Shown: positions 2,677 to 29,142, counted from the stretch's first letter. The stretch: 29,990 nt of DNA from Candidatus Vampirococcus lugosii (GCF_018420025.1 NZ_JAEDAM010000009.1:1-29990), one strand, 5' to 3'. Notes: a model not told the origin generated them from the letters alone. A program made the numbers and translations.

Positions 2677-3777
2677 ATGATTTCATATAAAGAAATAAAT
2701 TATATAATTGATTTATTTAGAGAAGTTGAAAGTTCAATATCAGAAATTGATTTTTTTGATTGTAAATCAAATAATAATTTTTTATATAGTTTTTTGTATA
2801 TTATAAATTTTAGACAATTTATTATAAATAAAATTTATGAAAATAAAAATATGAGATTTTATTTAAATGTTTTTAATTTTCAAAAAAATTTTAATAGTTT
2901 AGACGATATTGAAAATATTATTAAAAATAACAATATATTTGAAATTGATTTTGATAAAAATAATTTACATAAAATATATTCAAAAAATTTAGTAACTATA
3001 AGTTTTTTTATTAGATATTTAGAAAATAATAATATATTAAACTTAAATAATTTATTTTTAAAAAAACTATCTTTTTATGAATTTGAAAAATTTAAAAAAA
3101 ATAAAATAATAAATTATAAAAATCCTATATATGATTTTTATAAAAATAAATTTCTATGGAAAAATAATTTTGATAAATTTTTTGATGAAAAATATGAAGA
3201 AGTAAAAATTGAATATAAAGATAAACTTAAAAATAAAAAAGATATATGATATACTGAATATAAATTGATGCGACTTTATAATTATAATATACTTTATAAA
3301 TCTTATCAAAGTATAAATAATTTTAATTTTATAAAATATTTTATAGCAAAATATATATTTGATATATGAAATTATTTTAAATATAATTCAAATCAAATTA
3401 AATTTTTGTATTTATTTCATTTTTGTAAAAATTATGAACAATATAAAAAATTTCATAGTTTGTTTTATAAAAAAATCTCTCAAAAAAAAATTGATTTATA
3501 TCTAATTTGATTTTTTTCTTTTGTGTGAATATTTACTGCTTATTTTATAAATTTTAATATTTGATTTTTTGTTTTCTTAATAATTTTTGTTGTAATAATT
3601 ATAGGAATATATTCATATAAAAGAAATTTTTTATCAATTTTGCCTACAATAAGAGCTATTTGTTTATGATGAATATTAATTTCTGTAATTTATTTTTGAT
3701 ACGAAATAAATATAAATTTTAGTAAAGATAGTTTATTAAATATGACTGTAAATATATTGTCTTGAAAAAATAAATAA
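2677..3777 (+). CDS. Hypothetical membrane protein: Asn/Lys/Phe-rich N-terminal half, C-terminal transmembrane helices
   Basis: 366 aa. Standard-code ORF 2677..3249 continues in frame through several TGA codons to TAA at 3775. Hydrophobic helices include GFFSFVGIFTAYFINFNIGFFVFLIIFVVIIIGIY and AICLGGILISVIYFGY. No family recognised. In-frame CGA at 3271. Confidence 0.6.
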
Positions 3778-3920
3778 TTTTTTGCTTACAAAGATGAGTT
3801 TAATATTGTTGACACAATAAAAAAAGCTTGATCTTGTATTTTTTAAAAAAATCATTATAATGAAATTTATAATTTATTTTTTGTAATTATTTTTTTATAA
3901 CTAAATATTCATAATATATA

Positions 3921-4496
3921 ATGAATGAGAATTTTAATAAAAAAATATTCATAATATCAGGTCCTTCTGGTGTATGAAAAACTACTATTTGAAATTATGT
4001 AATAGATGCAGATGATCTTGATTTTGAAAAAATTATTACTACTACAACTAGGGAGCCAAGAGCAGATGAATTTTATTGAATACATTATTATTTTGTTGAT
4101 GATGAAAAATTTAAAAGACAGATTGAAGCTTGAAAATTTATTGAATATGCATTAGTTCATTGAAAATATTATGGTTCTACATATGAAGAATTAGATAGAA
4201 TTTTTTCAGATTGAAAAATTCCTTTTTATATAGTAGATCATCAATGAGCAGTTTTTCTAAAAGAAAAATTATCAAAAGAATATATTGTAAAATTGATTTT
4301 ATTAGTTCCACCAAATGAAGATGAATTAATAAATAGATTAAAACAAAGATGAACTGAATCTGAAGAGGAAATAAAAATAAGATTACAAGATTCTAAAAAA
4401 CAATTACAATACAAGGATGTTTATGATTATCAAATTGTCAATAATGATTTGGAAGATGCTATTGAAAAATTTATTAAAATAATTAATAATGATTAG
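3921..4496 (+). CDS. gmk: Guanylate kinase
   Basis: 191 aa. P-loop GPSGVGKTT, whose second Gly is TGA at 3975-3977. Also TTTTREPRADEFYGIHYYF, GKFIEYALVHGKYYGST and RGTESEEEIKIRL. 8 of 11 Gly codons are TGA. Ends TAG. Confidence 0.92.
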
Positions 4497-4528
4497 TTAG
4501 TTTTAATAAATTAAATTTTTTTATTTTG

Positions 4529-5941
4529 ATGGAGTTCAAAAAATATATAATAGTTTGAGTTTTATGATTGTTGTTGACTTTATGATTATGAATTTTTGTT
4601 TTTAAAGAACATTATGAATCAAATAAATTAAATGATTCAAATTTTTCTTATATTCCATCAAATTTTTCACAAGTATTTCATATAAACTTTGATGATAATC
4701 TATATTGATTCTTGGATGAAGCACCTGATGATATTTATGGTAGTCAAAATATTGTTGAAATATCTGATGGTTTAAATAGTGTTACTGCATATCAATGATC
4801 TTTGGATTGAAGTGATATATCGTTTATGATTTTTGATGTGCAAGATGATTTTGATTTTCAAAATTTATTAGATTCATGATTTTTGTATAAAGATTGAGAT
4901 TATGTTTATGAAAATATATCTAATAATAAATATATATATATAAAAGAATCTTTACTTGATTTGTTTTTGAATTATACTTGAAAAAGTATGGATGATTTAA
5001 GTTCATTGTCTTCGTATATTCAAGATTTAAAAAGTTCCAAAAAAAATATTTGACTTTTTTCAGAACCTAATGTAGAAAGTATTACTCAAACTAATTTTAA
5101 TTCTATATTTCCTTATTTGGATGATTTGGGTTATACTATATCTACTGCTAGACTTTCAAATAAAGATTTTGATTGATCAATCTCAGTTCTTTTTGATGAA
5201 AATATTGATCTTTTTCAAGATTATGAATTTGAATCTAAATATTCAGATAATTTGTTGGAAGATACTATAGCTTATCTTGAAGTTTGATCAATAACTGATT
5301 TGATATGAACTGATTCTATATGAGTTGATCTTAAAACATTAATAATGTCTATTGAATTATCACTTGAAGAATATTTTTGAGATTTATGATTATGACTTAC
5401 TGATTCAAATTATTCTGATTTGTGAAAGTCTTTATCCTCAAATATTTGATTAGTTGTAAATAAATGAAATAATGAAATGGGTGTATGAGCTAGGATTATA
5501 TTTGATGATATTTGAGTGTATAATGTTTTGGATGTATTTTTTCCATTTATTGTTCAATTTATTGAAGATTTAGATATTGAGTGAGAAATTTCAAAATTTA
5601 CTTGAGATAACGAATTTTGAATTAATTTCAATATACCTTATGTTTGATTAGTTGCTTTGGAGTCAAATATTATTGTATCTAATGATTGAGAAAGGACATA
5701 TATAGATATATTGGAGCCCAAATTGGATTCTGAATCAATAGATTTTGATTATAATAAATCTTCTATTTTATCTTATTATTTAAATTTATCAAATTTGTTT
5801 GATATAATGTATCCTGTTGGGTGATTCCAAGAATTCTGATTTACTAAAGAACAATTTGAATTTTTTCAAGATAAAAAAGTATTTTGAAATTTAGATATTG
5901 ATTGAAATAAAATAATATTTAATTTTAATTTAAAAAATTAA
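4529..5941 (+). CDS. Hypothetical acidic exported or membrane-anchored protein (single N-terminal hydrophobic helix)
   Basis: 470 aa, continuous frame with many TGA=Gly, ends TAA. N-terminus MEFKKYIIVGVLGLLLTLGLGIFVF followed by a long Asp/Glu/Ser/Asn-rich domain. No family recognised. Confidence 0.65.
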
Positions 5942-5942
5942 T

Positions 5943-6206
5943 ATGGCTATATATTTAAATACTATATTAAAAAATTATTTAATTTTTTGATTTGCTCTGG
6001 CAATATTTGTAGTATTATTATTTAATAGTATTTTTAATACTGAATTTGTTGATTTTTTAACTTTTTTTTATGGAGATATATTGTTTTGAGATAAATCTAA
6101 TCAAATAAATTTAATGGATTTTTTTAAAATATTGTTAATACTTATTATTGAAATAAGTTTAATTGGTTCTTTTTTTAGTTTTATAATAAAAAAATTATTT
6201 AATTAA
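5943..6206 (+). CDS. Small hypothetical membrane protein
   Basis: 87 aa. Starts 2 nt after the previous stop. Two hydrophobic segments: LIFGFALAIFVVLLF and ILLILIIEISLIGSFFSFII. Confidence 0.5.
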
Positions 6207-6210
6207 AAAT

Positions 6211-6444
6211 ATGAAAATTCGCATTAAAGTTAATTTATTTTCAAAAAAAGATTTGATTTTATATCAATGAAAAGATATTTTTGGATTAGATTATTATATA
6301 GTGTATACTAAATCTAAACCTATATGATGACAAGCAAATAAATCAATTATTAACTTAATATCTAAATATTTTGATAAAAATAAATCTGATGTCTTTATTA
6401 AATCTTGATTTAAATCAAAAGAAAAAATCATTGAAATAAAATAA
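6211..6444 (+). CDS. DUF167 (YggU/UPF0235) family protein
   Basis: 77 aa. KPIGGQANKSIINLISKYFDKNKSDVFIKSGFKSKEKIIEI parallels the YggU core PPVDGQAN..L..FL.....s.v.i..G..sr.K.i.i. Both Gly of GGQAN are TGA. Confidence 0.75.
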
Positions 6445-6495
6445 ATTAATATTATAATGCATATATAATTATTTATATTACTTAAATATTGATTT

Positions 6496-6822
6496 ATGAA
6501 AATACTAACTACTTTTGTTGTTGCATTTATTATTTGATATTTGTTTTGAGCATATTCATCATTTAGTATATTGGTTGATTTTACTTCTGAAACAGCAAAA
6601 AATTTATTTGATGAATCCATACAAGAATTATATACTTGAGATAATCAATTAGTAGATTGAGATTTTGATGTAAATATTTCATCTTATTTGGATCAACAAA
6701 AAGAAAAATTAATAAATAATTTTAATGAAGAAGTTGCAAAAGCTAAAGAAAATTTATATAGTCAGCTTAGAAATTATTTGCAATCCAAAATTGATGAATT
6801 GTTTACAAGTTCTGAAAATTAA
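6496..6822 (+). CDS. Small hypothetical membrane-anchored protein with a helical acidic C-terminus
   Basis: 108 aa. N-terminal helix MKILTTFVVAFIIGYLFGAY, then a coiled-coil-like tail (QQKEKLINNFNEEVAKAKENLYSQLRNYLQSKIDEL). Confidence 0.5.
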
Positions 6823-6856
6823 ATAATATTTTATATAATAACTTTAAATTAACCTT

Positions 6857-7969
6857 ATGTTATACATAATATTGTGAATTGTTTTGTTAATTATGATACT
6901 TATTATATTTTTATATAATATATGGAAAGATGAGGATTTGTTGGATAATAATGAATCTGGTACTCAAGATGAATTTGTTGAAAAATTAAAAAATAGTTCT
7001 ATTGATAAAAAAATATTTTTTGATGGTTTAAAAAATTTAGATATAAAAAATGAAACTGTAATATCTTTAAAAAATGAAATAAATAAATCTATAGTTGGTA
7101 TGGATGAATTTATTAATTCTATTTTGATTAATGTATTTACATGATGACATTTATTAGTTGAATGACCTCCATGATTGGCAAAGACCAAAACAATAACAAG
7201 TATATCTAAAATTATGAGTTTTAGTTCAAAAAGAATTCAATTTACTCCTGATATGCTCCCCGCTGATATTATGTGAGTAGAAATTTTTAATACGAAAACT
7301 AATGATTTTGAAATAAAAAAATGACCTGTATTTACAAATATTTTGTTGGCTGATGAGATAAATAGAACTACTCCCAAAGTTCAATCGGCATTATTGGAAT
7401 CTATGCAAGAAAAACAAGTTAGTATTTGATGAGAAACATTTAATTTGCCTTATCCATTTTTTGTTCTTGCAACACAAAATCCTATTGAGCAAGAATGAAC
7501 TTATCAACTTCCAGAAGCTCAATTAGATAGATTTTTGATGAAAGTTATAGTTGATTATCCAAATATAAAAGATGAAAATAATGTATTGAATGTATTAGAA
7601 AACGAAAATAATATATCTTTACAAAAAATAATAAGTATATGAGATTTTGAAGAAATAAAATCAGAAATTGAGGATATAGTTATTAGTGATGATATAAAAG
7701 ATTATATTGTAAGATTAGTGAATTCAACTAGAAAAAAGGACGAAAGAGTATTGTATGGTGCTAGTCCTAGATGATCAATATCACTTATGAATGCATCAAA
7801 AACACTCGCTTATATTTTATGAAGAGATTATGTTATTCATGAAGATATTCAAAAATTAGCATTATTAGTTTTGAGACACAGGGTAATTCTTACTTATGAT
7901 GCCATAGTTGATGGACTTAATGTTGATGATGTTGTTTGTGATATGTTAAGTAAAGTTAGTTTGGAATAA
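6857..7969 (+). CDS. MoxR-family AAA+ ATPase with an extra N-terminal hydrophobic helix
   Basis: 370 aa. Walker A GGHLLVEGPPGLAKT (TGA-coded Gly at 7142, 7145, 7163, 7172). Walker [52 protein letters not shown]-terminal GASPRGSISL. N-terminus [23 protein letters not shown]. An alternative in-frame ATG at 6893 keeps most of this helix. Confidence 0.88.
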
Positions 7970-7994
7970 TTTATAATTTCAGTGTTTCAAGATT

Positions 7995-8026
7995 AAAACA
8001 ATAATTTTTTATTGTTTTTTTGTTTT
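7995..8026 (+). terminator. Hairpin plus T-tract downstream of the MoxR gene
   Basis: AAAACAATAA (7995-8004), loop TTTT, TTATTGTTTT (8009-8018), followed by a T-rich run. The 10-bp stem is AT-rich. Confidence 0.45.
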
Positions 8027-8284
8027 TATATATTACATAAATTTTATAATATTATTATAAAAAATTTAAATATTTTTTCTTGATTTTATTCATTATAAAT
8101 AATAACTTCCTAATTAAGATATAGCAATATTTAATATTATTTTTATTTATGAAGTTGAATTTAATATTATTTGTATATAAAATATATTTAAATTTTTGCA
8201 AAAAAAATAATTATATATATAATATACTTATAATATTTTCCTTAAGAAATATTTATTTAAATAAATTAAAATAATAATTATATT

Positions 8285-8602
8285 ATGAATAATTATGAAA
8301 AAAAACAAAAAATTATTGAAATTTTGGAAAAAGATGAAGATAAAAAGATTTATAATTTTTTTGTAAAAAATATTGATAAAATATCAGATGAAGATATTGA
8401 TGATATATATACATCTTTTACTACGGATGATAAAAATAAAATAAATGAAATTATAAAAAAAGATAATGAAAAGCTTAGTGAATTAATCTTAAAATTGGAA
8501 GAAATAGATACAAAAATAATAAAAAAAATATTACAACATAAAGAAGAAAACGAATCTCAAGAAGATATGGAAAATATTGAAAATTTATTTGATAAAATAT
8601 AA
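8285..8602 (+). CDS. Hypothetical small acidic coiled-coil protein
   Basis: 105-aa ORF intact even in the standard code (ATG to TAA). Very Asp/Glu/Lys-rich. No family recognised. Confidence 0.55.
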   Translation: MNNYEKKQKIIEILEKDEDKKIYNFFVKNIDKISDEDIDDIYTSFTTDDKNKINEIIKKDNEKLSELILKLEEIDTKIIKKILQHKEENESQEDMENIENLFDKI

Positions 8603-8609
8603 ACATAAA

Positions 8610-10253
8610 ATGACAATAGATAATTTTTCAGAAAATACTAGAAAAGCGGATGAATTTTTGGATAATTTGGAAACAGAAACTAAAGATTCTATAAGTGAAT
8701 CATTAAAGGTTGAAACAGAACATGCAATACCAGATATTGATTATGAAATAGAATTATATAAAAATGCATATAAAAAATTATCAGAGATGGAACAGAAATT
8801 TTGAGAAGCATTATGAGACTATTCTTTTGATCATTATGATTGAGAATTAGATACTAAATATAGTTATACTGAATTTGAAAAACTTGCAAGAGGTTTAAGA
8901 CAAGAATTAATAGATTTACAAAATACTAAAGAAGATATAGGTTTTCTTGAATATAAAGCTTCTGTAATATGAAGAAAAACATGATTGTATAAAAATCCTT
9001 TAAATTTTGATTATCTTTTATCAGAAAAACTTGGTAAAGAAACTAAACAAGAAAAACTATTTAATAAGATGGTTGATAAGTTGTTAGATGTTGAACGAGA
9101 AGTAAAAAACCATATAGTTAAAAGTTTAGAAACAGATTGAAAGTTGCCTGAAAGAGAAACAAAAATTAATTCGGATATTGAAAATTTAGAGTTTGAGACA
9201 GATTTATGAAGAATAAAATTTTCAGAAATTGAAGATTATGAACCTGAAACAACTACAGAAAAAATTGATTTATGGCGAAGTCAAAGAGAATATTTTGAAT
9301 GACCTGATTTAGTTATTGATTTGGGGCTTGATAAAGATGAAAATGAATCTAATATTGATGCAACAGATATTAATGAATTTACTGATTTACTTGTAAACTT
9401 ATTGGAAGAGAATCCAAATGTTTTGAAAGAGCTTGAAATACAAGATATTTATAATTTGTCTCCAAAAGAAGCTATTTTACTTTCATCAAAAATAGTTAAA
9501 GATAAATTAGAATTTTCTCTAACTAAAAGTTCTATTGATAAAAATGTAAATAATGATTGATTATTAAGACAATTTATTTGACTAATTAATACAGATTGGA
9601 TAAGTGATTATAAATTAAATGAAAGTGTTCTATCAAAATTACCACAAGAAATGCAAGATGAAATTAGAGAAAATCCTAAAGAAGCATACAAAAAATATTC
9701 TTCTGAGATAGATCAAGTATCTATGAACGAACTTTTTGAATCAAATAGTGAAGTAAGTTCCAAAAATTATTCACAAGCTGTAAAATTAGTTTTTGATATA
9801 CTTAAAGAAATGCAAGATCCAGATACAACACAATTGAAAAATACTTACTGTAAACAACATACAATAGATCTTTGAGAATTTGATGATTCAGAAATTGTTA
9901 GTAGTAGTTGGAATACTTTTTATACAATATCACCACATTATAGAAGTAATGTTGATGTAGTAATAATTGATGCAGCACATGCAGATTCTTGATTAGAACT
10001 TGATTGAAAAATTTCTTATTCTGAAGATAAATTTTTATTTAATTTAATTAATTTGGAAAAACAAGGTCTAATTTCAAAAGAAGAAAAAATTTATCAATTG
10101 GAATATTGGGCAAAATATAATGAAAATCGACAAACTCCTTTATACAAAAGTGTTTGTTCTTATATCGCAAATTATTATAAAGAAATATGAGAAACATATA
10201 AATATTTGAAATGGATGTGATATACAGATACTGAAAAAGAATATAATATATAA
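8610..10253 (+). CDS. Hypothetical large acidic protein (orphan)
   Basis: 547 aa. Standard-code fragments 8577, 9321 and 9651 are all in frame 0 and are joined only by TGA codons. Checked codon by codon with no TAA or TAG until 10251. Contains three in-frame CGA codons (9096, 9276, 10128). Confidence 0.7.
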
Positions 10254-10289
10254 AAAAATTTAATTTTAATAATTTAAATTTATAAAATA

Positions 10290-11417
10290 ATGTATAGGCA
10301 ATCTAATTTATTTTTGGAAAAAATTATAAAAGAAAATATTAATAATTTATGAAAAATAAATTGAATATCTATAATTATAGTTTCTCATATTTTGCCAGAT
10401 AAATTAGATTTTATACAAATATTATCAAAATATTTCAAAATTGAGTTTATAATTCCTAAACCTAAATCAATAGATAAAAATACTTTTGATAAACTTAAAA
10501 ATGAATTTGATATTTTACAAATAACGAGAGATGAAATATATAAAAATCAAGAAATTATTTTTGAGAAAATAAAAAATATACAAAATAAAATAATCATCAT
10601 AGATATATGATGATATTTTTCAAAAATAATAAAAAAATTAGAAGAAAAATTTAATAATAAAATTATATGAATAATTGAAGACACTGAAAATTGACATCAA
10701 AAATATGAAAAAATAATAAAAAATATTTCAATTCCTATAATATCGGTAGCAAGAAGTGTTTTGAAAAATTGAGAAGATTTTTTAATATGACAATCTATAG
10801 TTTTTTCTACAGATTATGTTTTGAGATTAAATAATATTTTATTGCATAATAAATATGCTGGTATAATTTGATTTTGAAAAATATGAAAAAGTATTGCAAT
10901 TGATCTAAAATGAAAAAATATTCAATTATGAATTAATGATATAAATCCATATAAATGAATAGAAGTATTAACTTATTGATATAATTTTTTGAGTAAAGAA
11001 GAATTATTTACAAAATCAGACATTATATTTTTGGCAACATGAAATTATTGACTTAAATGAGAAGATTTTGAAAATCTAAAAAATAATGTTATTTTGGCAT
11101 CCGTTACCTCATCAGATGATGAAATAAATATAAATTATTTAATAGAAAATTTTGAAACTAAAATTATAAACGAATATACAACAAAATATACAAAAAATTG
11201 AAAAAATATTTATTTATTATATTGATGAAATGCAATAAATTTTATAAATAATGCTGTAGTTTGAGAATTTATATATTTAGTACAAGCAGAAATTATTCAT
11301 ATAATATTTAAATTATACAAAAAAAATTGATTAAATAATGAAAATAATTCTATATATAGTATAGAAAATAACGAAAAAATATATATTCCTCAACTTTGGC
11401 TAAAATATTTTATATAA
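10290..11417 (+). CDS. Adenosylhomocysteinase-fold (AdoHcyase-like) NAD-binding protein, divergent paralog
   Basis: 375 aa. Colinear with SAHH landmarks: IIDIGGYF vs ilDDGGDl; GIIEDTENGHQKY vs GvSEETTTGvhRL; IPIISVARSVLKNGEDFLIGQS vs fPAInVNDSvTKSKFDNlYGcr; Rossmann GIIGFGKIGKSIA vs vvGYGdvGKGcA; LATGNYGL vs tTTGN; LLYGGNAINF vs LLaeGRLVNL. The GHFD His is replaced (VTSSDDEI). Confidence 0.55.
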
Positions 11418-11694
11418 AGTAATATATTATCTTGAAGATAATTCATAAAGAAACAGAAAATTTACTATACAAAGATGAAAGATTAAAATATTTTCTCTTA
11501 AAAAATATTCTGTATAATTTTTATTTTGATATATTATGTTTGTCATTAAATTACATTTTAATATTGTTTATTACATATTACTTATTAAATTTTTATAGGA
11601 ATTATATAATAAAAATAATAAAAATAATAAAAATCTTCTTTAAAAATAGTTTTATTTCTTTATATATATTTTTATTTATTTTTTTATTTAAAAA

Positions 11695-13059
11695 ATGTTT
11701 TTTAGTAAAAAATATATTTTATATCTTCGTTTATTGAGACCTATTTTTCATATACTTTTGATACTTTTATCGTTTTGGATAGTTTATAATATTAGATTTT
11801 ATGATTTTGTAGAAAATATTTTTCTTGATTTGCCAGATATTATATTTAATGAAACTTTAATATTTACATTAATTTCATCTTTTTTATTTATTTTAATTTG
11901 ATTTTTATTTTCTATTTATGAAATATTTAAACCTATACATTGATATTATAAAGAATTTTTAAAAATTCGATTTTTTTGGATGATTATAATATCTTTTATA
12001 GCTTATTTGTGACAATGATTTATTTTTCCTAACGGTATTTCTAGATTTATACTTTTAATTGGATGATTTTTTTCATTATTATTTATTACTATTTTTGATA
12101 TATTATTAAATAATATTAATTCTTATTTGGAAAGAAAAAATCCTTATAAACTTTTATTTATATATTCTACAGAAAGTTTTTATAAAAAAATATTTAATAG
12201 TTTTAGTGATTACAAAATTTATGATATTACTTGAATTTATGTAGATGATTTATTAGATTTAAATAAAGAAATTAAAAAATATGATATATTTGTTACTGTA
12301 GGTAATTTTGATAAAAATTTTTTACAAAATTTAATGGATATAATAAGACTTTATAATAAACAATTTTATCATATATCAGAAAATTTTTTCTTGGAAGATT
12401 TAGTATATTCATCTTCTAGAATTGGTCCAGTTTTGGCATATGAACAAAAACCTTCTCCATTGGATTGATGGTTCAAAGTAACTAAAAGAATTACAGATAT
12501 ATTATTTTCTATATTGTTTATAACAATTTTTTCTTGGCTTTATATATTAATATCAATTTTTATCTTTATTAAAGATTGAAGACCTATTTTTTATAAATCC
12601 GAAAGAATAGCTAGATGATGAAGAAAATTTTTTATGTATAAGTTTAGAACTATGATAAAAGATGCTGATAAACAAAAACAAAAATTAATAAAACAAAACG
12701 AAAGAAAATGACCATTATTTAAAATAAGTAATGATCCTAGAATTCCTAAATGGTGAAAAATATTGAGAAAAACTTCTTTAGACGAAATACCACAATTTCT
12801 TAATGTAATAAAATGAGATATGTCAGTAGTAGGACCTAGACCTCATTTGGATTTTGAAGTTGAAAAATATGAAAAATGGCAAAAAAGACTTTTGAGTGTT
12901 AAACCTTGAATTACTTGATATGCTCAAATATTTGGAAGAGATAATTTAGATTTTGACGAAGAAGCGAAATTAGATCTTTATTATATTCAAAATTGGTCAT
13001 TATTTTTGGATGTTTTTGTTATTATTAGCACTATTAAAGTTGTTTTTTCTGGTAGGTAA
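11695..13059 (+). CDS. Polyprenyl-phosphate sugar phosphotransferase (WbaP/Bac_transf family)
   Basis: 454 aa. Four N-terminal TM helices, a central soluble region and a fifth TM. C-terminal catalytic domain [103 protein letters not shown], and KPGITGYAQI. In-frame CGA at 11968. Confidence 0.88.
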
Positions 13060-13210
13060 TAAAAATTATTTGATCTATACTGAAATAATTAAATAAAATA
13101 AAAAATCAAATTTTAAATAAGTTTTGACAAAAAAAATAAATTACTTGAATATAAGTATAATTTTATTATAATCATATTTATAATTTTAGTTATTTATTAA
13201 TAATTTTTTT

Positions 13211-14566
13211 ATGGTAAATTTGGAAGATATAAAATTGCCTCCTAATAATTTAGAAGCTGAAAAATGAGTATTATGATCAATCATTTTGGACAATGATGTT
13301 ATGTATATACTTGATAGTTTCGTTATGACTGAAAATGATTTTTATCAAAGACAACATAAAGATATATATTCTTGTATATTAGAACTACATTGAGAAAATA
13401 AAACTATTGATATAGTTACAATTTCAAATCAACTTACAAAAAATCAAAAATTGGAAGATTGTGGTGGTATTGATTATTTATATGAATTATCTAGTAGTAT
13501 TATTAGTCCTACCGTAGCATGAGATTATGCAAAAATTGTTAAAGATAAATCTATTTTGAGATGAATATTAAAAACTACTCAAATTATTTCTTGAGAAGTT
13601 TATGAAGAAAAAGATACATCTGAAATTCTTGATAATATAGAAAAACAAATTTTTAATCTTACACAGATAAAAACAAGCAATAGTTTACAACATATTAAAG
13701 ATATATTAAATAGAAGAATTGAAGATTATATGGAAATAGTAGATGATCCTGATAAAATAAATAGAAATAAAGTTTTGTCTATGTATAATTATTTGGATAA
13801 ACTTTTGTGATGATTTAAACCTTGAGAATTACATATATTAGCTGCTAGACCTAGTATGTGAAAAACATCTTTTGCTATTAATTTGTTAGTAAATGCGGCT
13901 ATTAAACAAAATAAATCTGTAGCACTATTTTCTTTGGAAATGTGAAATGAACAAATTGTTGATAGAATTCTTTCGGCAGTTGCTGATATACCGATTTATA
14001 AAATACATAAATGACAACTTGATGAAGAAGATTTTGCAAATATTTGAGAAGCTATGGAAAAAATTTGACAAGTAAATATTTTTTTGGATGATAAATGATG
14101 AGCTAGTATTCCAGAAATTAAATCAAAACTTAGAAGATTAAAAATAGAAAAATGAGCTTTGGATATGGTAATTATAGATTATTTGCAACTTATGAGTAGT
14201 GCTTGATCTAAATTTGCATGAAATAGAGTGCAAGAAATATCTGAAATATCAAGATGATTAAAAGAAATGGCAAGAGAACTTGAAATACCAATTATGGCAT
14301 TATCTCAATTATCTCGTGCTGTAGAACAAAGACCTGATAAAAAACCACAATTATCTGATCTTAGAGAATCTTGAGCTATAGAACAAGATGCAGATGCAGT
14401 AATGATGCTTTTTAGAGAAGAATACTACGATCCTGATACTGATAGACCATGAACTGCCGATGTATTGTTGAGAAAAAATAGAAACTGACCTACATGAGAA
14501 GTTGAATTAAGTTTTGTTAATGAAATAATGAAATTTTATGATAAAGTTCCAGAACAAGAAGACTAA
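13211..14566 (+). CDS. dnaB: Replicative DNA helicase DnaB
   Basis: 451 aa. [19 protein letters not shown]. Walker [17 protein letters not shown] (Gly is TGA at 13859). Walker [54 protein letters not shown]. Confidence 0.93.
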
Positions 14567-14598
14567 AAAATTTAATTTATTATATTATTTAAATAATT

Positions 14599-18222: not shown

Positions 18223-18249
18223 AATATATTTATATAATTTAAATAAATT

Positions 18250-18669: not shown

Positions 18670-18698
18670 TATTTTTATAAAATAAAGTTTAAATTAAT

Positions 18699-19463: not shown

Positions 19464-19580
19464 TTTGATACTATAAATTTAAAGATATAAAATGTTAATA
19501 TAAATAATTAAATTCATTTGATTTTAGATAAAAATTGATTATATTATTTAATAATATTTTATTAAATAATTAATTTTTAT

Positions 19581-21260
19581 ATGAAAAAATTATCATCAGA
19601 AGATTTGAGAAATATTTGGAAAAATTTTTGGGAAAATTGAGAAAAAGATCATAAATATCTTAAATATTCATCATTAATACCAGATAGTAAAGATAAAACA
19701 GTTCTTTTCAATACTGCTTGAATGCAACAGCTTGTATCATATTTGCTTGGTAAACCTCATCCTTTATGAAATAGGCTTTATAATATTCAAAAAAGTTTGA
19801 GAACTTGAGATATAGATGAAGTAGGAGACGAAAGACATCTTACATTTTTTGAAATGTTTGGAAATTGGTCTTTATGAGATTTTTTTAAAAAAGAATCTTT
19901 GACTTGGTCTGTAGAATTTTTAAATAAAGAAATTTGAATTTCTATAGAAAAAATTTGAGCAACAATTTTTGCTTGAGATGAAACTTTATGAATATGAGAA
20001 GATATAGAAGCTAGAAAAATTCTTAATGAAATATGAATTCCTAATTCAAGAATTAAAGCAATATGAATGGAAGATAATTTCCGAGGACCAGCAGGGGAGT
20101 TGGGACCTTGTTGACCTTGTTCAGAATTTTTTGTTGATAGAGGTGAAGAATGGTGAAAAAATAATTGGGATATGTGAGAAAATGATAGATTTATAGAAGT
20201 TTGGAATAATGTTTTTATGGAGTTTTACAAAAATGAAGATTGAACTTTTTCAAAATTAAAACAAAAAAATGTAGATACAGGTATGTGACTTGAAAGACTT
20301 GCTATGATTTTACAAAATAAACAAACAGTTTTTGAAACTGATTTATTTGAATTTATTATGATAAGTTTACAAAATTTTGTTTGAAAAAAATATGCACCGT
20401 TCCAAAAACATGAAAATGAGTTTGATCAACAAGAAAAAAATGATACAAGGCATTTCAGAATAATAGCAGATCATATAAGAACAGCTATTTTTATGATTTG
20501 AGATTGAGTAATTGCTAGTAATGATGGTAGATGATATGTACTTAGAAGACTTATCAGAAGATTTTATTATTCTCTTATTTCTCTCAATGAAAATATTAAA
20601 TTAGATGATTTTATTAATGATTTGGTAAATAAAGTAAACCAAAAATATTGAACTTATTATATAGAAATTTCAAATGGTGTAAATAATATTATTTCATCTA
20701 TATTAAACGAAATTTATCAATTTCAAAAAACAATTAATAATTGAATAAGAGAATTTGAAAAAATAGTAAAAGAAATAAAAAATTCTGATAATCCAAATAG
20801 GAATTATTTGACATGAGAAGAGGCATTCAAATTATATGATACTTATTGATTACCAGTAGATATGATAGAAGAACTTGCTTTCCAAACTTGATTTTCAGAA
20901 AAGTGATTAAATCCTGTTTCTTTTATTGAATTTGAAAAAGCTATGGAAAAAGCAAGAGAAAAATCTCGTAAATCTTCAAAAGATATGTTCAAAAGATGAA
21001 TTGATTGGGCAAAATATTTGGATTGAATTAGTCCTACAGAATTTGTTTGATATGAAAATTTGGAATTGGAATGAATAAAAATTTTGAAAGATTTTGAAGT
21101 AAACTGACAAAGAGTTATTATTTTTGATAAAACTCCTTTTTATGCAGAATCTGGAGGTCAAACTTCTGATATTGGAATTTTGGAATTTGATGATAATAAT
21201 GTATTAAATATTTATGAAGTTCAAAATTATTCTGGTGTATTTTTACATTTTATTAAATAA
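19581..21260 (+). CDS. alaS: Alanine--tRNA ligase, catalytic and tRNA-recognition domains only (no editing or C-Ala domain)
   Basis: 559 aa. VLFNTAGMQQ; HLTFFEMFGNWSLGDFFK; EDNF-[CGA][91 protein letters not shown]. Ends TAA at 21258, just inside the beta-barrel and before any HxxxH/CxxxH editing motifs. Confidence 0.9.
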
Positions 21261-21316
21261 TTAAAGATTTTAATTTATTATTTATTTAAAATAAAAAATT
21301 ATTTATTTAAAAAGAC

Positions 21317-21344
21317 TTGACATTAATAAAAAAAATATTAAAAT
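21317..21344 (+). promoter_or_regulatory. Candidate sigma70-type promoter for the pilin-repeat gene
   Basis: Perfect TTGACA (21317-21322), 16-nt spacer, TAAAAT (21339-21344), about 40 nt upstream of ATG 21386. -10-like hexamers are common in DNA this AT-rich, so this is tentative. Confidence 0.3.
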
Positions 21345-21385
21345 TAATTTAATATTTTAAATATTAAATATTAAATATAACAAAA

Positions 21386-23518
21386 ATGAGAAATAATAAA
21401 TGATTTAGTATGATAGAAACTGTGGTGTCAATATGAGTAATTGCTATATTGGCAATAATTGCAGGATTAAGTATTACTATTTGGGTAAGTAAAGCAAGAG
21501 ATGCAGAAGTGGTAAATAATGTAACGACTATAGCATGATGACTTGAAAGTTATCATGTAACAAATTTTGAGTATCCAGAACCAGATGGAAATATTTTAAC
21601 ATGAAATTTGGAGCAGTGAATAATGTGAACTTGAGTTATTGAAGAATTATCAAGTTTTGTAAATGTAAAAAATTTATCAAATTCTAATAAATATATTTAT
21701 AGTACTTATCAAATTTATGATCATTATCAAGTAGTATGATTATTGGAAAATGATGTTCAAATACAGGCATATGATTATATGATAGATAAGGCATATGCAA
21801 ATACAGATGCAACTATAAAACTATGAAATAAAGGATACTATTCAAAATGAACTATTGGAATGCATTTAATAGCAAATCAAGATAATACTTTGGTGCTTGA
21901 ATGAAATGATTTAAAATCAAGTTATAAATTGATAAGTAATATTTGAAATGAAGATATTGTTTTAAATAATTTAGATGATGTTAAAAAAATTTCAGAAACT
22001 ATTGTTAAAAATTGATGATCTTGATGAGATTGATGAAATTCGGATTTGTTATGAACTATTGAATGTAGTGATAAAACAGTTTGAACTACATTTGAAATAT
22101 TTTGAGATACATATTATGTAGCAAGTGATAAAAAAGATATTCAAGATAATATTGATGGAGAAATAGATGGAAGTAATTTTATATGAGATTATCCAGCTAA
22201 TAGAATATGTACAAGTAATGTTACTGATATGAGTAGTTTATTTAATTGAGAAGAAAATTTCAATCAAAATATATCAAATTGGGATACAAGTCAGGTTACT
22301 ACTATGAGACAAATGTTTTGGAATGCAAGTTCATTTAATCAAGATATAGCAAATTGGGATACAAGTAATGTTACTAATATGAAACAAATGTTTTTTAATG
22401 CAAGTTTATTTAATCAAGATATAAGTACTTGGGATACAAGTAATGTTACTACTATGAAAGAAATGTTTTGGAATGCAAGTTTATTTAATAAAGATATATG
22501 AGATTGGGATATAAGTCAGGTTGATACTATGAATATGGAATGAATGTTTAGATGAGCAAGTTCATTTAATCAAGATATAGGTGATTGGGATACGAGTAAT
22601 GTTACTACTATGAGATCGATGTTTTGGAATGCAAGTTCATTTAATCAAGATATAGGTGATTGGGATACAAGTAATGTTACCACTATGAGATCAATGTTTA
22701 GATGAGCAAGTTTATTTAATCAAGATATAGGAAATTGGGATACAAGTAATGTTGATACTATGAGTTATATGTTTAAAGATGCAAGTTTATTTAATCAAGA
22801 TATATCAACTAAAAAAGTAAATGAATGAAGTGATGATGAATATATAGCTTGGGATACGAGTAATGTTACTACTATGAGATCGATGTTTAATTGAGCAAGT
22901 GTATTTAATCAAGATATATGAAGTTGGAATACAAGTAATGTTACTAACATGGAAGATATGTTTTATTGAGCAAGTTCATTTAATCAAAATATATGAAATT
23001 GGGATACAAGTAAGGTTGCTACTATGAATAGAAATAGAGATGGTTGAATGTTTAGATGAGCAAGTTCATTTAATAATGGATGTGATGAATGAGATCTTGG
23101 TTGTGATTTAAATAATTGGGATACAAGTAATATTACTACTATGAGAGAAATGTTTAGATGAGCAAGTTCATTTAATCAAGATATAGGTGATTGGAATACA
23201 AGTTATGTTAAAGATATGACACATATGTTTAACTGAGCAGATAGTTTTAATCAAGATATAGGTGATTGGAATACAAGTAATGTTACTAATATGAGTTATA
23301 TGCTTAAAGCAGAAAATTTTAATAATTGATGTGATAAATGAGTTTCAGGTTGTCCTTTAGGTTGGGATACAAGTAATGTTACTAGTATGTTTCAAATGTT
23401 TAATGATGCAGAAAGTTTTAATCAAGATCTATCATGATGGTCTGTTAGTAGTGTAACAGATAATCGGGCATTTGATGATTGAGCCAATGCACGAACAGAA
23501 CCAAAACCACAATGGTAA
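21386..23518 (+). CDS. Type IV prepilin-like protein fused to a DUF285 / BspA-type leucine-rich repeat domain
   Basis: 710 aa. Class III signal MRNNKG|[22 protein letters not shown] with the -1 Gly encoded by TGA (21401-21403), Glu at +5 and a hydrophobic pilin helix. Then a ~230-aa unique region and ~15 repeats of consensus [11 protein letters not shown].MF.[10 protein letters not shown] (DUF285 signature). Standard-code fragment 22304..22501 is in frame. Confidence 0.85.
22208..23470 (+). repeat. Coding tandem repeat array, 75-nt (25-aa) unit with occasional insertions, about 15 units
   Basis: The Trp codons of successive WDTS motifs at 22280, 22355 and 22430 are exactly 75 nt apart. Neighbouring units (for example from 22583 and from 22658) differ at roughly ten of 75 positions by hand comparison. 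Confidence 0.85.
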
Positions 23519-23537
23519 GCTTGTCCATAATTGAAAT

Positions 23538-23569
23538 AAAAAAACATTTCTATTAAGAAATGTTTTTTT
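23538..23569 (+). terminator. Rho-independent terminator after the pilin-repeat gene
   Basis: Perfect 14-bp inverted repeat AAAAAAACATTTCT (23538-23551), loop ATTA, AGAAATGTTTTTTT (23556-23569). It lies 20 nt after the stop codon and its T-run is part of the 3' arm. Confidence 0.6.
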
Positions 23570-23683
23570 AATAAAAACAAATAAAAAATGATTTTAATCT
23601 TGAAAATATATTAATTTTTAATATATATAATTTGATTAAATGTTTTTTATGAAGTTTTAAATATATAAAAATATTATTAGAAA

Positions 23684-24256
23684 ATGATAAAATATTTTAT
23701 TAGTTTTATATTGTTTTTTTGATTATTATCTTTTGTAAATGCAGATTGTATAGATTTTGATGAATGAAAATTATGTTTAAATTTGGAAAATACTTGAAAT
23801 TGAAATTATAAAGTAAATAAAAATTTTGATAATAATTCTTCAAATAATATTTTTTTGTTATCATGTAGTATATTGACTCCATCTTGAATTTTGAAAGAAT
23901 TATGAGCTTGTGATTGAAGTTTTGAATATAATTGAACTTGAATAAACGATATTAGATATTATGTAGATTTTCAAGACCAAAGAAAAATATTGAATACTAA
24001 AGCTAATTTTGTTTATTTTAAGTATAGACAATGGCAAGAATTTATTTGAGTATATTCTATGTGGCAAGATTTGGTAGATAAATTATGAAATAAATTTCCT
24101 AAATTGGCAAATAATCAAGAATGGATAAATATAAGTAATAATCTTTATAAACAAATGGATAATCTTGTAAATACAGAAAAATCTACTATTGATTCTTATC
24201 AAAATTTTTATGATTTAATAGTTGATTATGTTAGATACAGTATCTCAAAAAAATAA
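23684..24256 (+). CDS. Hypothetical secreted protein (signal peptide, Cys-containing N-domain, helical C-terminus)
   Basis: 190 aa. Signal-like MIKYFISFILFFGLLSFVNA|DC. Five Cys in the first ~90 mature residues. C-terminal helical segment QEWINISNNLYKQMDNLVNTEKSTIDSYQNFYDLIVDYV. Confidence 0.6.
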
Positions 24257-24923
24257 TAAAAAACCTATAATAGAAATTGAAAAATTATCATTTTCTCATA
24301 ATAAATGACAAGAATGTTTTTTTGAAAATTTGGATATTAAATTATCAAAAAGTGATTTGTTAGTTATTTTTTGAAAATCAGGCTCTTGAAAAACTAGTTT
24401 TTTGAATATATTATGAAGTTTAAATAAACCAATTAGTGGTAAAATTTTTTATAATTGATTAAATATTTTTGAACAAAAAAAATCTTTTTTGCAAAATTAT
24501 AGAAATTCCAAAATATGATTTGCTTTTCAAGATTTTAGAATATTAGATGATTTTTCTGTTTATGAAAATATTGTTTTGCCATTTTATATATGAAAATTTA
24601 AAAAAGATATTGACTGGATAAATTATTTGATAGATTATTTTGAAGTTTCTCATTTATTAAATAAAAATATTAAATATATTTCTTGATGAGAAAAAGAAAG
24701 AGTAAGTTTACTAAAATCATTTGCTCATAAGCCACAAATAGTTTTATTGGATGAACCTTGATCTTATTTAAATCAAGATCTTAAAAATAAAATATTTGAT
24801 TTTATATATGAATATTCTCAAAATAATATTTGTGTTATAGTATCTCATGATAATTATTTAATTGATTATTTTTCTTTAAATAAGTTTATTGAAAATAAAG
24901 ATTTAACATTTTATAAAAAATAA
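24228..24923 (+). CDS. ABC transporter ATP-binding protein (MacB/FtsE/LolD-like)
   Basis: 231 aa. The ATG at 24228 overlaps the upstream CDS by 29 nt. Walker A GKSGSGKTS (two TGA Gly), Q-loop FAFQDF, signature ISGGEKERVSL, Walker B IVLLDEPGS, H-loop VSHD. Confidence 0.85.
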
Positions 24924-24926
24924 TTT

Positions 24927-26168
24927 ATGTTTTGGAAATTTATTTATAATGATTTTGTACAAAATAAGTTCAAAAATATTCTTGTAATATTTACATTTTT
25001 TATAGTTATGTTTTTTTCTATTAGTATTTTCATACTTGATAAAAATTTAAATCAATTTATATTTGATCAGACATGAATTTCTGAAAGATTAAAAAATCCA
25101 AATATGCTAGAAGTAATGCCAAAATCTTGAACATTAGAAGCTATTTTATTAGATCGTGAAGATGATAGTAATGATGAAATAATTTCTTTGGAAAATGATG
25201 ATAGAGTACATAAAATATATTATTTTTATAATACTAGATTTCCAAATTCTTTATGAATTAATTTATTTTGAACTGAAATAAAAACTGATTTTTTGATGTA
25301 TATTGCATCTGATGAATTGTTTACTAAATCAAGTTTTAAAAATGATGATATACCATTATGAATATCAAAAAAACTTTTGGATTTATATAATTTTGAATTA
25401 TCAAATAATTCTTTATTTCCAAGAATTACTGAATCACAACTTTCATTATTAAAATTTGATTTAAAATTTAATCATTCAAATATTTTTAATATTAAAGGTA
25501 ATGATTATTCTTGAGCTTGAAGAATAAATACGGTAGATAATAATTTTCCTTTATTATGATTGACTATTCCTTATTCAAAAGCTAAAAAAATATTTGAAAA
25601 TATTTGAGAAAAAAAAATAAATATTCATAAATCTTTGGTTTTTTTGAAAGATAAAAATATGATTAATTCCTTTGTTCAAGATTATCCTAATTTGAATATT
25701 AAAACTTTGGAGTCAGAAAAAGAAAATATAACAAATAAATTATTTGTAATAAAAGCTTTTATGTTTTTTGTTTTGTCTGTTGTAGTATTTGTTTTAATTA
25801 GTTTTATGTTTTTCTTGACTCATTCTATAGTTTTTGATAATAAAAATATATTTAAAATATTGATAAGTCATGGTGCATCGTCTTTATTTATATTTTGAAT
25901 AATTTATTTTAAAATATTTTTTTCTTTTTTGGTGGCATTTATTATATTATTAATATATGTTTATATTTTGAATAATTTAGTATTTATATATATTAGTAAA
26001 TATATATATAATAATTATTCTTTAACTATTGATTTCGTTCCAATATCTTATTTAAATATTTTAATATTATTTTTGTCTTTTTCTATTTTTATTACTATAT
26101 TAGTATTCTTAATATCAAGAAAATCTATTTTTATGAAATATTTAAAAAAATATTTAATATTAAACTAA
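24927..26168 (+). CDS. FtsX/MacB-type ABC transporter permease
   Basis: 413 aa. Starts 4 nt after the ATPase stop. Topology: TM1 (ILVIFTFFIVMFFSISIFIL), a ~230-aa extracytoplasmic domain, then three C-terminal TMs. Standard-code fragments 25635 and 25929 are in the same frame. Confidence 0.75.
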
Positions 26169-26240
26169 TTTTATATTGAAAATAGAATATAAATATATAT
26201 ATTTTATTAGTAAATAATTTTATGAATTTAAACTAAAATA

Positions 26241-27656
26241 ATGAATCTTACATTAGAATCTTATATTAATCATATTAATTCTTGAGAATTAAAAGCTGTT
26301 GATGTTCTTAATAATTATTTAAATAAATCAAAAGATTTAAATAAAGAAAATAATGCATTTGTTAGATTTCATGAAGAATATGCAAATGAATTTATAAAAA
26401 ATTCAGATTCAACAATTTTGAAATGAGCTCCTATTTGAGTAAAAGATATATTTTTAACTAAATGATTAGTTACTAGTTGTTGTTCAAAAATGTTACAAAA
26501 TTATATATCACCTTATAGTTCAACTTGTTTTTTAAATTTGGAAAAAGCTTGAGCATGTATGATATGAAAAACAAATATGGATGAATTTGCAATGTGATCT
26601 AGTACAGAAAATTCTTTTTTTGGTCCTACAATTAATCCATATTGAAAAAATAGAATACCTTGATGAAGTTCTTGAGGTAGTGCTGCTGCTGTTGCTAGTG
26701 ATATGTGTATTGCTTCTTTGTGAACTGATACATGATGAAGTATTAGACAACCTGCAAGTATGTGTTGAGTAGTATGATTTAAACCAACTTATTGAAGAGT
26801 TTCAAGATATGGAATACAAGCTATGGCTTCATCGTTGGATCAAGCTTGAGTTTTTACAAAAACTGTAAAAGATGCGGCTATACTTACTAAATATATGTCA
26901 TGAAAAGATAAAAAAGATGCAACATCTTTAGATTTAGATTTTTCTGATAGTCTAGATTTAGCTTTACAAAAAGATAATTTGAAGTGATATAAAATAGCAG
27001 TAATTAATCAATTTTTTTCTGAAGGTCTAGATCAAGGAGTAAAAAAAATAATACTTGACAAAATAGAAGAGATAAAAGATAAATGAGCAGAAGTAGAATA
27101 TATTGATTTTTCTATATTGGATTATGCTTTGAGTGTTTATTATATTATAATGCCTGCTGAATTAAGTACTAATTTATCAAGATTTGACTGAATTAGATTT
27201 GGTCATCAAGATGAAACTTTTAAATATGATGATATTTATTCTTATTATTCTTCAATAAGAAATGAATGATTTCAAGATGAAGCAAAAAGAAGAATTATGA
27301 TTTGAACTTATGTATTAAGTGCAGGTTATTATGATGCATATTATTTGAGAGCTCAAAAAGTAAGAAAATTAATAAAAGAAGAATATGATAAAATATTTTC
27401 TAAATATGATGCCATAGTTTGACCTGTATCTCCGACTCCTGCTTGGAAAATTTGAGAAAAAATAAATGATCCTATCAAAATGTATTTATCAGATATTTAT
27501 ACTATACCAGTTAATTTAGCTTGATTGCCAGCTATGTCTTTACCAGCATGAAATATTGAAAAAGATTGAGAATCTCTTCCTGTATGATTACATATAATAG
27601 CAAATCAATTAAAAGAAGAAAATATATTTTCTATAGCTTCTGTATTGGAAAAATAA
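26241..27656 (+). CDS. gatA: Glutamyl/aspartyl-tRNA amidotransferase subunit A (amidase signature family)
   Basis: 471 aa. GAPIGVKD; [26 protein letters not shown]; GGSSGGSAAAVA (TGA Gly at 26661, 26664, 26673); [31 protein letters not shown]; [11 protein letters not shown]; [17 protein letters not shown]; LAGLPAMSLP. Confidence 0.92.
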
Positions 27657-27677
27657 TTTAAATATAAAAATATTATA

Positions 27678-28133
27678 ATGGAAATTAATCTTTATGATTG
27701 AGAAAAATTTGAGAGAACAAAAGTTCGGTATATTAGTTTTGTTACATTATATGTATTTTTTATACTAATTTCGTTATTATCTTGAAATATAACTTGAGTA
27801 ATACTACTTTTTTTGTTTCTTGGTTGATATATGTTCTTTAATTTACTTTGAAAAAATAATATAAAAGCAAAAATTTTTGATGAATGATTAAAAATTTGAA
27901 ATAAATTTATTGCTTGGAGTAATGTGCATTGATTTGTACTTGAACTTGATGACAATACAAATCTTATTAAAAATATTGTATTTTTGGTAAATAATACTAA
28001 ACTTGTACATACTCTAAATGATGATAATGAAAAAATAAAAGAATTTATTTTAAATCTTAATGATAAATGTGAAATGTTATCTTATTATGATCAAACTTTT
28101 GTGGATAAAATTATAAGAAAATTAAAAATTTAA
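27678..28133 (+). CDS. Hypothetical membrane protein (two TM helices plus a soluble C-terminal domain)
   Basis: 151 aa. YISFVTLYVFFILISLLSGNITGVILLFLFLGGYMFF. In-frame CGG at 27726. No family recognised. Confidence 0.5.
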
Positions 28134-28152
28134 ATTTTAAACAAAATTAATA

Positions 28153-28434
28153 ATGTCATACAATGATATATTTGAATCTAAAGAAAATGATATAAATGAA
28201 ATTGAAGTATTAAAAAAAGATTTAAATTCTTTGCAAGAATTAGTAGTTGATCAGATTGTAGAAGATTTGGTCTATAAGTTTAAAAATAAAGATTTTGATT
28301 CTTTTCAAAAAAATATCAAGAAAGCTGAAAAATTTAAAAAATGAGTAATAATAACTAAATTTAAATCTTGTTTTGAAAATAATATGAATTCTTTGAACTC
28401 AAAACAAAAAGAAATTATAAATAATTTGAATTAG
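28153..28434 (+). CDS. Hypothetical small protein
   Basis: 93 aa. Standard-code ORF 28153..28344 continues through one TGA to TAG at 28432. Charged and helical-looking. Confidence 0.45.
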
Positions 28435-28533
28435 TATTGAGTGGTGTTTTTATTTTTAATCTAATATTTTAATTTTAATATTAAGTAAATTAAAGTATAT
28501 ATATCGTATATTTATTTTTTAAAATAAAAAATT

Positions 28534-29142
28534 ATGGAATTTAAACTTGTTGATTTGGAATATTGATATGATGAATTTGAGCCGTATATAGATAAAGAAA
28601 CTATGAAAATACATCATAGTAAACATCATCAAACATATGTGGATAAATTAAATAATTCTATAAAATGAACTGATGCAGAATGAAAAAGTTTAGAAGAAAT
28701 ATTTGAAAATATGTCAGATTTTTCTGATGCAATAAGAAATAATTGAGGTTGAGTTTATAATCATAATATTTATTGGTCAAGTATTTCTCCAAATTGATGA
28801 TGAGAACCTAAATGAAAACTTTTTGAAGATATAGTTAATACTTTTGGAAGTTTTGATTTATTTAAAAGTGAAATGGAAAATGCTTGATTATCTCAATTTG
28901 GATCAGGTTGGGCTTGGTTGATAGTTGATAAAGACTGAAATCTTAAAATAACTAAAACACAAAATCAAGATAATCCACTTATGAATATTTTGAGTTCGGA
29001 TAATAGATGAAAACCATTATTTTGTATTGATGTTCGGGAACATGCTTATTATTTGAAATATAACAATAGAAGAAATGATTATTTAAGTAATATATGGAAT
29101 ATTATAAATTGGGATAAAATAAGTGATGATTATAATAATTAA
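28534..29142 (+). CDS. sodA: Fe/Mn-family superoxide dismutase
   Basis: 202 aa. [29 protein letters not shown]; [11 protein letters not shown]; FGSGWAWL; DV-[CGG][15 protein letters not shown]. All four metal-ligand positions are present (H in KIHHSKHH, H in YNHN, D and H in DVxEH). Confidence 0.9.

Follow-up and report, generated by a model that had tools for sequence, protein, structure and literature searches.

CGA and CGG as probable tryptophan codons in Candidatus Vampirococcus lugosii, an expected instance of the Absconditabacterales genetic code

Introduction

In Absconditabacteria, Codetta predicts that the codons CGA and CGG (together CGR) have changed their meaning from arginine (Arg) to tryptophan (Trp; Shulgina & Eddy, eLife 2021, PMC8629427). 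Here we analyse these codons in a contig of the predatory bacterium Candidatus Vampirococcus lugosii (GCF_018420025.1, NZ_JAEDAM010000009.1:1-29990). The entire 29,990-bp contig is our window, and all positions are counted on the whole contig. Judging from the window and its relatives, V. lugosii very probably reads CGA and CGG as Trp, in addition to reading UGA as glycine (Gly). This confirms existing knowledge: the prediction applied to the order as a whole, and V. lugosii adds a phylogenetically expected instance. An earlier note on the window, made by a model from the sequence alone, had proposed the same double reassignment, and its account of the Codetta prediction is accurate.

The published prediction covers ten Absconditabacterales genomes, and V. 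lugosii is not among them. UGA is called Gly and CGA is called Trp in all ten. The calls for CGG are divided: Trp in four genomes, undetermined in five and Arg in one. A tRNA with anticodon ACG is found in 0/10 genomes, GCG in 9/10, UCG in 9/10 and CCG in 8/10. The identity elements of tRNA(UCG) and tRNA(CCG) fit Trp (G73, no A20). CGA and CGG change their meaning together because tRNA(UCG) reads both; in the published explanation, the set of tRNA(GCG) and tRNA(UCG) makes the two codons hard to separate (all PMC8629427).

The reassignment has since been restated in a 2026 paper in Nucleic Acids Research (NAR) and, with an independent k-mer method, recovered from 2.7 million NCBI assemblies (2026). 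The V. lugosii genome paper (Moreira et al. 2021, PMC8080830) describes 38 tRNA genes, uses NCBI table 25 and reports UGA to Gly as the only reassignment. Our literature search found no paper that links Vampirococcus with CGA/CGG as Trp.

Our window resembles the Codetta genomes closely. It comes from the same order and has the same three reassigned codons. CGR codons are rare, AGA is the main Arg codon, CGY (CGT or CGC) still encodes Arg, and GC content is low. Yet the window is more extreme, with a GC content of 0.20 versus 0.29-0.38. Per 10,000 codons it holds 8 CGA, 3.4 CGG and 81 TGG, compared to 13-37 CGA and 35-76 TGG in the Codetta genomes, whose figures cover aligned Pfam domains only, while ours cover all gene-model codons. 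NCBI table 25, the table behind the V. lugosii annotation, shares UGA as Gly with the code proposed here. It keeps CGA and CGG as Arg, however, which the evidence from the window and the clade contradicts.

Parallels exist in other lineages of low GC content in which a nearly extinct Arg codon of the CGN box was captured: Anaerococcus and RFN20 Bacilli (Onthovivens) use CGG for Trp, and Peptacetobacter uses it for Gln. In the two Trp cases a tRNA(CCG) carries Trp identity features (PMC8629427). In these lineages CGG alone is reassigned, and CGA remains Arg through tRNA(ICG), whereas in V. lugosii both codons change. In Mycoplasma capricolum (Oba et al. 1991), as that work is cited in PMC8629427, CGG is unassigned: AT pressure has emptied a CGN codon, presumably the first step of capture. 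CGG is there described as lacking a decoder, while in our window the codons are used at functionally essential Trp positions.

Results

CGA and CGG fall on Trp positions of conserved proteins

Gene models of the window, in which TGA is read through, tile the plus strand and contain 8,790 codons. CG dinucleotides are rare, with 82 observed and 288 expected (ratio 0.28). Enumeration over all 82 yields seven CGA and three CGG codons in frame:

3271..3273, plus strand, CGA, hypothetical protein g2524 (2524-3777)
9096..9098, plus strand, CGA, lineage-restricted protein g8577 without Pfam domain (8610-10253)
9276..9278, plus strand, CGA, g8577, immediately 3' of a TGG
10128..10130, plus strand, CGA, g8577
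11968..11970, plus strand, CGA, N-terminal membrane region of a WbaP-like sugar transferase (gene 11695-13059)
20082..20084, plus strand, CGA, alanyl-tRNA synthetase (AlaRS; gene 19581-21260), Trp of the DNFW motif
23465..23467, plus strand, CGG, C-terminal tail of a DUF285/BspA-like repeat protein, variable column (E, Y, F, S, T, N, R and others)
23492..23494, plus strand, CGA, same C-terminal tail (gene 21386-23518)
27726..27728, plus strand, CGG, hypothetical membrane protein g27678 (27678-28133), R in the NCBI record
29035..29037, plus strand, CGG, Fe/Mn superoxide dismutase (SOD; gene 28534-29142), Trp of DVWEHAYY

To avoid presupposing the answer, we translated the proteins with CGR masked as X and then compared each site to its homologs. 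Every homolog aligned here has Trp at the corresponding positions of the AlaRS motif DNFW and the SOD motif DVWEH, which are known as invariant; in the SOD family signature the position is W, rarely F. In the AlaRS of Aquifex (1riq) and human (4xem), the residue opposite CGA 20082 is the W of EDNFW. The orthologous AlaRS of an SR1 relative (locus L011) has TGG at the matching codon, followed by a TGA-Gly. In 6gsc and related Mn/Fe-SODs, CGG 29035 is matched by the W of DVWEHAYY.

The third Trp-type site is CGA 23492. Among tails of the same subfamily (FDxGAxxW-TxPxPxW) its column holds W in 15/21 sequences and R in 0/21. When all tail types are pooled, the column has 17 W, 12 F and 10 K out of 60, and the log ratio of Trp to Arg emission, ln(W/R), of this broad mixed-subfamily profile is +0.3. 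The neighbouring CGG 23465 lies in a variable column with a profile ln(W/R) of -2.8.

Altogether, three of the ten CGR sites are of Trp type, none falls on a conserved Arg, three are in polar variable columns (two of them Arg-like), one is neutral and three lie in proteins or regions without an alignment. Solved WbaP/PglC structures match the WbaP-like protein in its catalytic domain only (residues 261-451), and CGA 11968 lies outside it. No Pfam family matched g2524, and a search of 5.8 billion proteins gave no match to g27678 other than itself.

Independent Logan assemblies cover seven of the ten codons (runs SRR13241708 and SRR13241709; the V. lugosii contigs L081, L082, L130 and L131 lie within the window). 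All seven are identical there and are therefore not assembly errors.

The ten codons are exactly those listed in the earlier note, which was also right about the rarity of CG, about the Trp positions in AlaRS and SOD and about the absence of CGR from conserved Arg positions, although it missed the Arg-like columns of 9096 and 9276. It further named three Trp-friendly contexts. That of 23492 is upheld, that of 9276 turned out to be a polar D/R/K/Q column, and 11968 is not alignable.

The other Arg-type codons stay on Arg positions

The window genes contain 179 AGA, 12 AGG, 6 CGT and 1 CGC codons beside the 7 CGA and 3 CGG. The following served as controls:

338..346, plus strand, CGT at 338 and AGG at 344 in SRYRKE of Tex, both on Arg of FIARYRKE in Pseudomonas aeruginosa Tex
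14315..14317, plus strand, CGT in SQLSR of DnaB
6220..6222, plus strand, the single in-frame CGC, in a small open reading frame (ORF; 6211-6444)

The column of CGT 14315 is Arg in 64/64 DnaB sequences from outgroups with the standard code. In conserved DnaB columns, AGA falls on Arg in 11/13 cases. The motif arginines of GatA (SIRQPA, 26745) and WbaP (GPRPH, 12838) are encoded by AGA. None of the Arg-type codons tested in the window falls on a Trp column. The four motifs are encoded as the earlier note had read them, with conserved Arg as AGA, AGG or CGT; its single CGC is real as well, but begins at 6220 instead of 6227.

CGA and TGG replace each other in SR1 relatives

The window's g27678, SOD and AlaRS are exact matches to NCBI proteins of V. 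lugosii, which is placed in Absconditibacteriota in the NCBI taxonomy and belongs to Absconditabacterales/SR1. Its closest DnaB relatives are SR1/Absconditabacterales genomes with 56-70% identity. We scanned contigs with DnaB and obtained 16 SR1 loci with 10-kb flanks for ortholog codon tallies. Three of them, L014 (SKJI01), L012 (UBA3291) and L007 (RAAC1_SR1_1), belong to genomes in the 2021 Codetta table. Beyond dnaB none of the 16 loci shares gene order with the window, and L011 is the sole one to carry AlaRS.

Individual proteins show direct swaps between the two codons. In DnaB alignment column 66, eleven SR1 relatives have TGG, while L013 and the closest relative, L001, have CGA. Outgroups have W (34) or F (30) in column 482, and L014 uses CGA there. 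The AlaRS of L011 has seven CGA codons of its own: five are opposite a TGG of the window, one of these at the W of E(I/V)WN-VFM, and a sixth is opposite Tyr.

The same pattern holds across 472 orthologous ORF pairs from the 16 loci and the window, after filtering for overlapping ORFs. For CGA (n=249 aligned codons) the partner is TGG in 47% and CGR in 34%, about 80% together; Phe/Tyr codons make up 8% and AGR/CGY 0.4%. CGG (n=29) is paired with TGG in 45% and CGR in 21%, and never with Arg. TGG itself (n=734) is opposite TGG in 62% and CGR in 17%. AGA (n=5,506) is opposite Arg codons in 80%, Lys in 12% and TGG in 0, and CGT (n=1,075) is opposite Arg in 82%.

Counted per site, a TGG partner occurs at 60/108 CGA sites and 11/23 CGG sites, compared to 0/974 AGA sites and 1/204 CGT sites. 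An Arg-codon partner occurs at 1/108 CGA and 0/23 CGG sites, compared to 161/204 CGT and 45/50 CGC sites. By these alignments, CGA and CGG behave as Trp codons in the SR1 clade and CGY as Arg codons. A cruder Codetta-like tally of SR1 ORFs against outgroup loci had been made before. We dropped it except for true DnaB ORFs, as antisense dnaB ORFs gave spurious R/L columns.

UGA encodes Gly and dominates the Gly codons

The window has a GC content of 20.2%. ORFs of at least 100 amino acids cover 3.5 kb under code 11 and 34 kb when TGA is read through; the latter is a sum over six frames and exceeds the window length because ORFs in different frames overlap. The reading of UGA as Gly is fully borne out: genes are intact only with UGA as a sense codon, and TGA stands at conserved Gly positions, in 8/9 cases for conserved DnaB columns. 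NCBI table 4 (UGA as Trp) was rejected, as TGA aligns to Gly and not to Trp in DnaB.

TGA makes up 406/491 Gly codons (83%) in the window genes and 24/26 in DnaB (13211-14566). The recoded stop UGA has almost displaced the GGN box, which illustrates the reach of recoding under AT pressure. In DnaB of 15 SR1 relatives the share of TGA among Gly codons ranges from 4% to 78% and tends to be higher at lower GC content, with exceptions such as L014.

Discussion

Why Trp is the probable reading

CGA and CGG stand on Trp positions of conserved proteins and interchange with TGG, while CGT, AGA and AGG stand on Arg positions. We therefore consider it very probable, on comparative grounds, that V. lugosii reads CGA and CGG as Trp. 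CGU, CGC, AGA and AGG remain Arg. The window alone is suggestive; the conclusion becomes firm through the codon swaps in relatives and the clade tally. In this respect the proposal of the earlier note is supported, but the window by itself is less clear-cut than the note implied.

Several observations weigh against this reading. The Trp signal appears at just three of the ten sites in the window, and for CGG it comes from one site there, in SOD. A likelihood for CGA computed from the window alone is approximately a tie when the broad DUF285 profile is used; it combines hidden Markov model emissions for g8577 and DUF285 with a conserved-Trp emission for AlaRS that was assumed, not computed. With column counts of the DUF285 subfamily, the same likelihood favours Trp by about two orders of magnitude. 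ARAGORN finds no tRNA in the window, and in the 16 SR1 loci it finds just tRNA-Trp(CCA), with A1:U72 and G73, and no UCG or CCG anticodon. A pattern for Trp-like tRNA(YCG), TAGCTCAGN{1,5}GGTAGAGCNNNNNNCTYCGAA, which combines a Trp-like D-arm without A20 with a YCG anticodon, matched 1 viral and 45 metagenome loci, none of them clearly SR1. The single Arg call for CGG among the ten Codetta genomes points in the same direction, and a 2026 preprint describes predicted Arg-codon reassignments as experimentally unverified.

Counter-evidence inside the window comes from g8577. For its family we collected 31 homologs in an exhaustive representative search and built the profile without the window's own sequence. 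The columns of all three CGA codons are variable, mostly polar and contain no W. CGA 9096 (ln(W/R) = -3.06) falls in an E/S/N/Q column that has R or K where the sequence context is most similar, and CGA 9276 (-3.92) in a polar variable column of D/R/K/Q/P. Thus each of the two sites favours Arg over Trp by about 3-4 nats. CGA 10128, also in a variable column, has +0.44. The AGA/AGG codons of g8577 have a median of about -3.4, and its TGG codons have -0.6, +1.9 and +5.1. CGA 9096 and 9276 score like the AGA and unlike the TGG codons of the gene and are therefore mild counter-evidence.

The homologs of g8577 are distant (about 30% identity) and come partly from standard-code organisms. One of them, at L132:902-2212 (GCA_023143935.1, 27% GC), has a CGA aligned to CGA 9276. 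In its organism the genes for S13, L36, IF-1 and a Mur ligase are free of in-frame TGA, and the standard code is apparently in use, so that the family spans recoded and non-recoded lineages. We also considered that an R in a g8577 homolog could be a hidden CGA-Trp. In the sole case examined, P0131, the codon is indeed CGA, but the organism has no in-frame TGA, and this R is probably a true Arg.

The CGA codons in polar variable columns of g8577 are best explained as tolerated AGA to CGA missense changes (Arg to Trp) at weakly constrained sites. About 2% of codons are AGA, which would make single-step changes at unconstrained sites a plausible source of the Arg-like CGA codons. The tie within the window is broken toward Trp because Arg at an invariant active-site Trp is intolerable, while Trp at a variable surface site is tolerable. 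The ortholog swaps and the clade tally break it in the same direction.

Alternative readings

The same mixture of sites could mean that reassignment in V. lugosii is ambiguous or incomplete, with CGA (perhaps also CGG) decoded as a mixture of Arg and Trp, or still in transition. The window does contain both Trp-type CGA codons (20082, 23492) and Arg-like ones (9096, 9276). CGR usage lies below that of most published genomes, for CGA below all ten, as expected under weak selection. The divided Codetta calls for CGG would fit as well, and Shulgina & Eddy (PMC8629427) state that experiments would be needed to exclude ambiguous translation. Still, we regard this as unlikely. CGA is opposite an Arg codon at 1/108 sites in clade orthologs, random Arg at the active-site Trp of AlaRS and SOD would be costly, and tolerated missense suffices for g8577 given its variable columns and distant homologs. 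A more specific form, that V. lugosii, which has the highest AT content among the clade members here, reads CGA depending on context, as Arg at sites such as 9096 and 9276 and as Trp at others such as AlaRS, appears quite unlikely to us. If it were true, V. lugosii, which can be enriched together with its host for study, would offer a living ambiguous intermediate of sense-codon reassignment.

Less probable still is that NCBI table 25 applies, with CGA and CGG as normal Arg codons and Arg in place of Trp in V. lugosii. The genome was annotated in this way (Prodigal, table 25), its public proteins read DVREH and DNFRGP, and two or three CGR sites are in polar columns where Arg is common. But AlaRS, SOD and the DUF285 tail would each need a change from Trp to Arg, each through the two rarest Arg codons, while the 198 other Arg codons avoid Trp columns. 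The TGG and CGA swaps between orthologs and the clade tally would have no explanation; the table is already strongly disfavoured. There is hardly any probability left for CGR codons being sequencing or amplification errors, parts of pseudogenes or sites fixed by RNA editing. The DNA was whole-genome amplified from micromanipulated consortia (multiple displacement amplification/multiple annealing and looping-based amplification cycles, MDA/MALBAC), which can raise such doubts. Yet the seven covered codons are identical in the independently made assemblies of both runs, the genes have their full length and good conservation, and the same codon behaviour recurs in 16 loci of independent relatives.

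A possible mechanism

If V. lugosii follows the literature on its order, the CGN box would be split. There would be no tRNA-Arg(ACG/ICG); tRNA(GCG) would read CGU and CGC as Arg. A tRNA(UCG), in most cases accompanied by a tRNA(CCG), would carry Trp identity (G73, no A20), be charged by tryptophanyl-tRNA synthetase (TrpRS) and read CGA and CGG. Historically, extreme AT pressure may have driven CGR nearly to extinction and left it open to codon capture. From TGG, CGG and then CGA could be reached by two single transitions, each synonymous under the new code. This route fits the excess of CGA (7) over CGG (3).

Consequences for annotation

Annotation with table 25 places Arg in public proteins where Trp belongs. 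The public V. lugosii records read DVREH in SOD (MBS8121687.1 / WP_213348464.1) and DNFRGP in AlaRS (MBS8121679.1 / WP_213348448.1). In the window, 10/81 Trp codons (12%) are affected, TGG accounting for the other 71. Such misannotation matters for structure prediction, for phylogenomics and above all for proteomic searches. V. lugosii is among the few Absconditabacterales observed alive with their host, and the SOD and AlaRS codons, being in conserved proteins of high abundance, are targets at the peptide level: PLFCIDV[W/R]EHAYYLK in SOD and AIGMEDNF[W/R]GPAGELGPCGPCSEFFVDR in AlaRS. The two readings yield different peptides because Arg makes a tryptic site and Trp does not.

Additional observations

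Logan protein copies of two window genes, P0001 (8610-10253) and P0124 (27678-28133), are translated with TGA as Trp (code 4). They carry a wrong W where homologs have Gly, at 15 residues in P0001 and 8 in P0124. W in database matches from SR1-like organisms is therefore suspect.

The matches of the tRNA(YCG) pattern were rejected as candidates, being phage tRNA arrays, intron-containing archaeal-type tRNAs and tRNAs of high-GC bacteria that are not attributable to SR1. One metagenome contig (Ga0137410_10050995, 66% GC; L085:2576-2649, minus strand) has a classical tRNA-Trp body with a CCG anticodon, A1:U72, G73, no A20 and AGGGGCGTAGCTCAGTTGGTAGAGCGGCGGTCTCCGAAACCG... A similar Trp-like body with CCG, but with A73, is found on L086 (44% GC). 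These two tRNAs could be further candidates for CGG as Trp outside low-GC lineages, or mutated copies. On another metagenome contig, L089 (41.5% GC), reading TGA through raises ORF coverage from 0.38 to 1.88. The contig has a near-perfect 135-nt hairpin at L089:3035-3171 and an Rfam-positive tRNA-like element at L089:4439-4510 (38.9 bits); the latter has CCG in its loop and a poorly pairing anticodon stem, and ARAGORN does not call it.

An Rfam scan of the window itself gave no match. AlaRS (19581-21260) has just 559 amino acids, compared to about 870 in a typical bacterial AlaRS. Bacterial and human structures align up to about residue 484, and the orthologous enzyme of L011 has a comparable size. 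V. lugosii may lack the C-terminal part, in which the editing domain normally lies, or encode it at another place. The DUF285/BspA-like protein (710 amino acids) has a type IV pilin-like methylation motif at its N-terminus (PF07963, E = 1.4e-5) and, by its domains, resembles a fusion of a pilin-type leader with surface repeats. Its gene contains near-identical internal repeats at 22593 and 22857.

The motif TATTTGCGAG occurs twice in an AT-rich intergenic region, at 29251-29260 and 29356-29365, 105 bp apart. Both copies lie between the SOD gene and a minus-strand gene (29518-29988) that runs off the contig end, and two of the rare intergenic CG dinucleotides belong to them. The pair may be a regulatory or promoter element.

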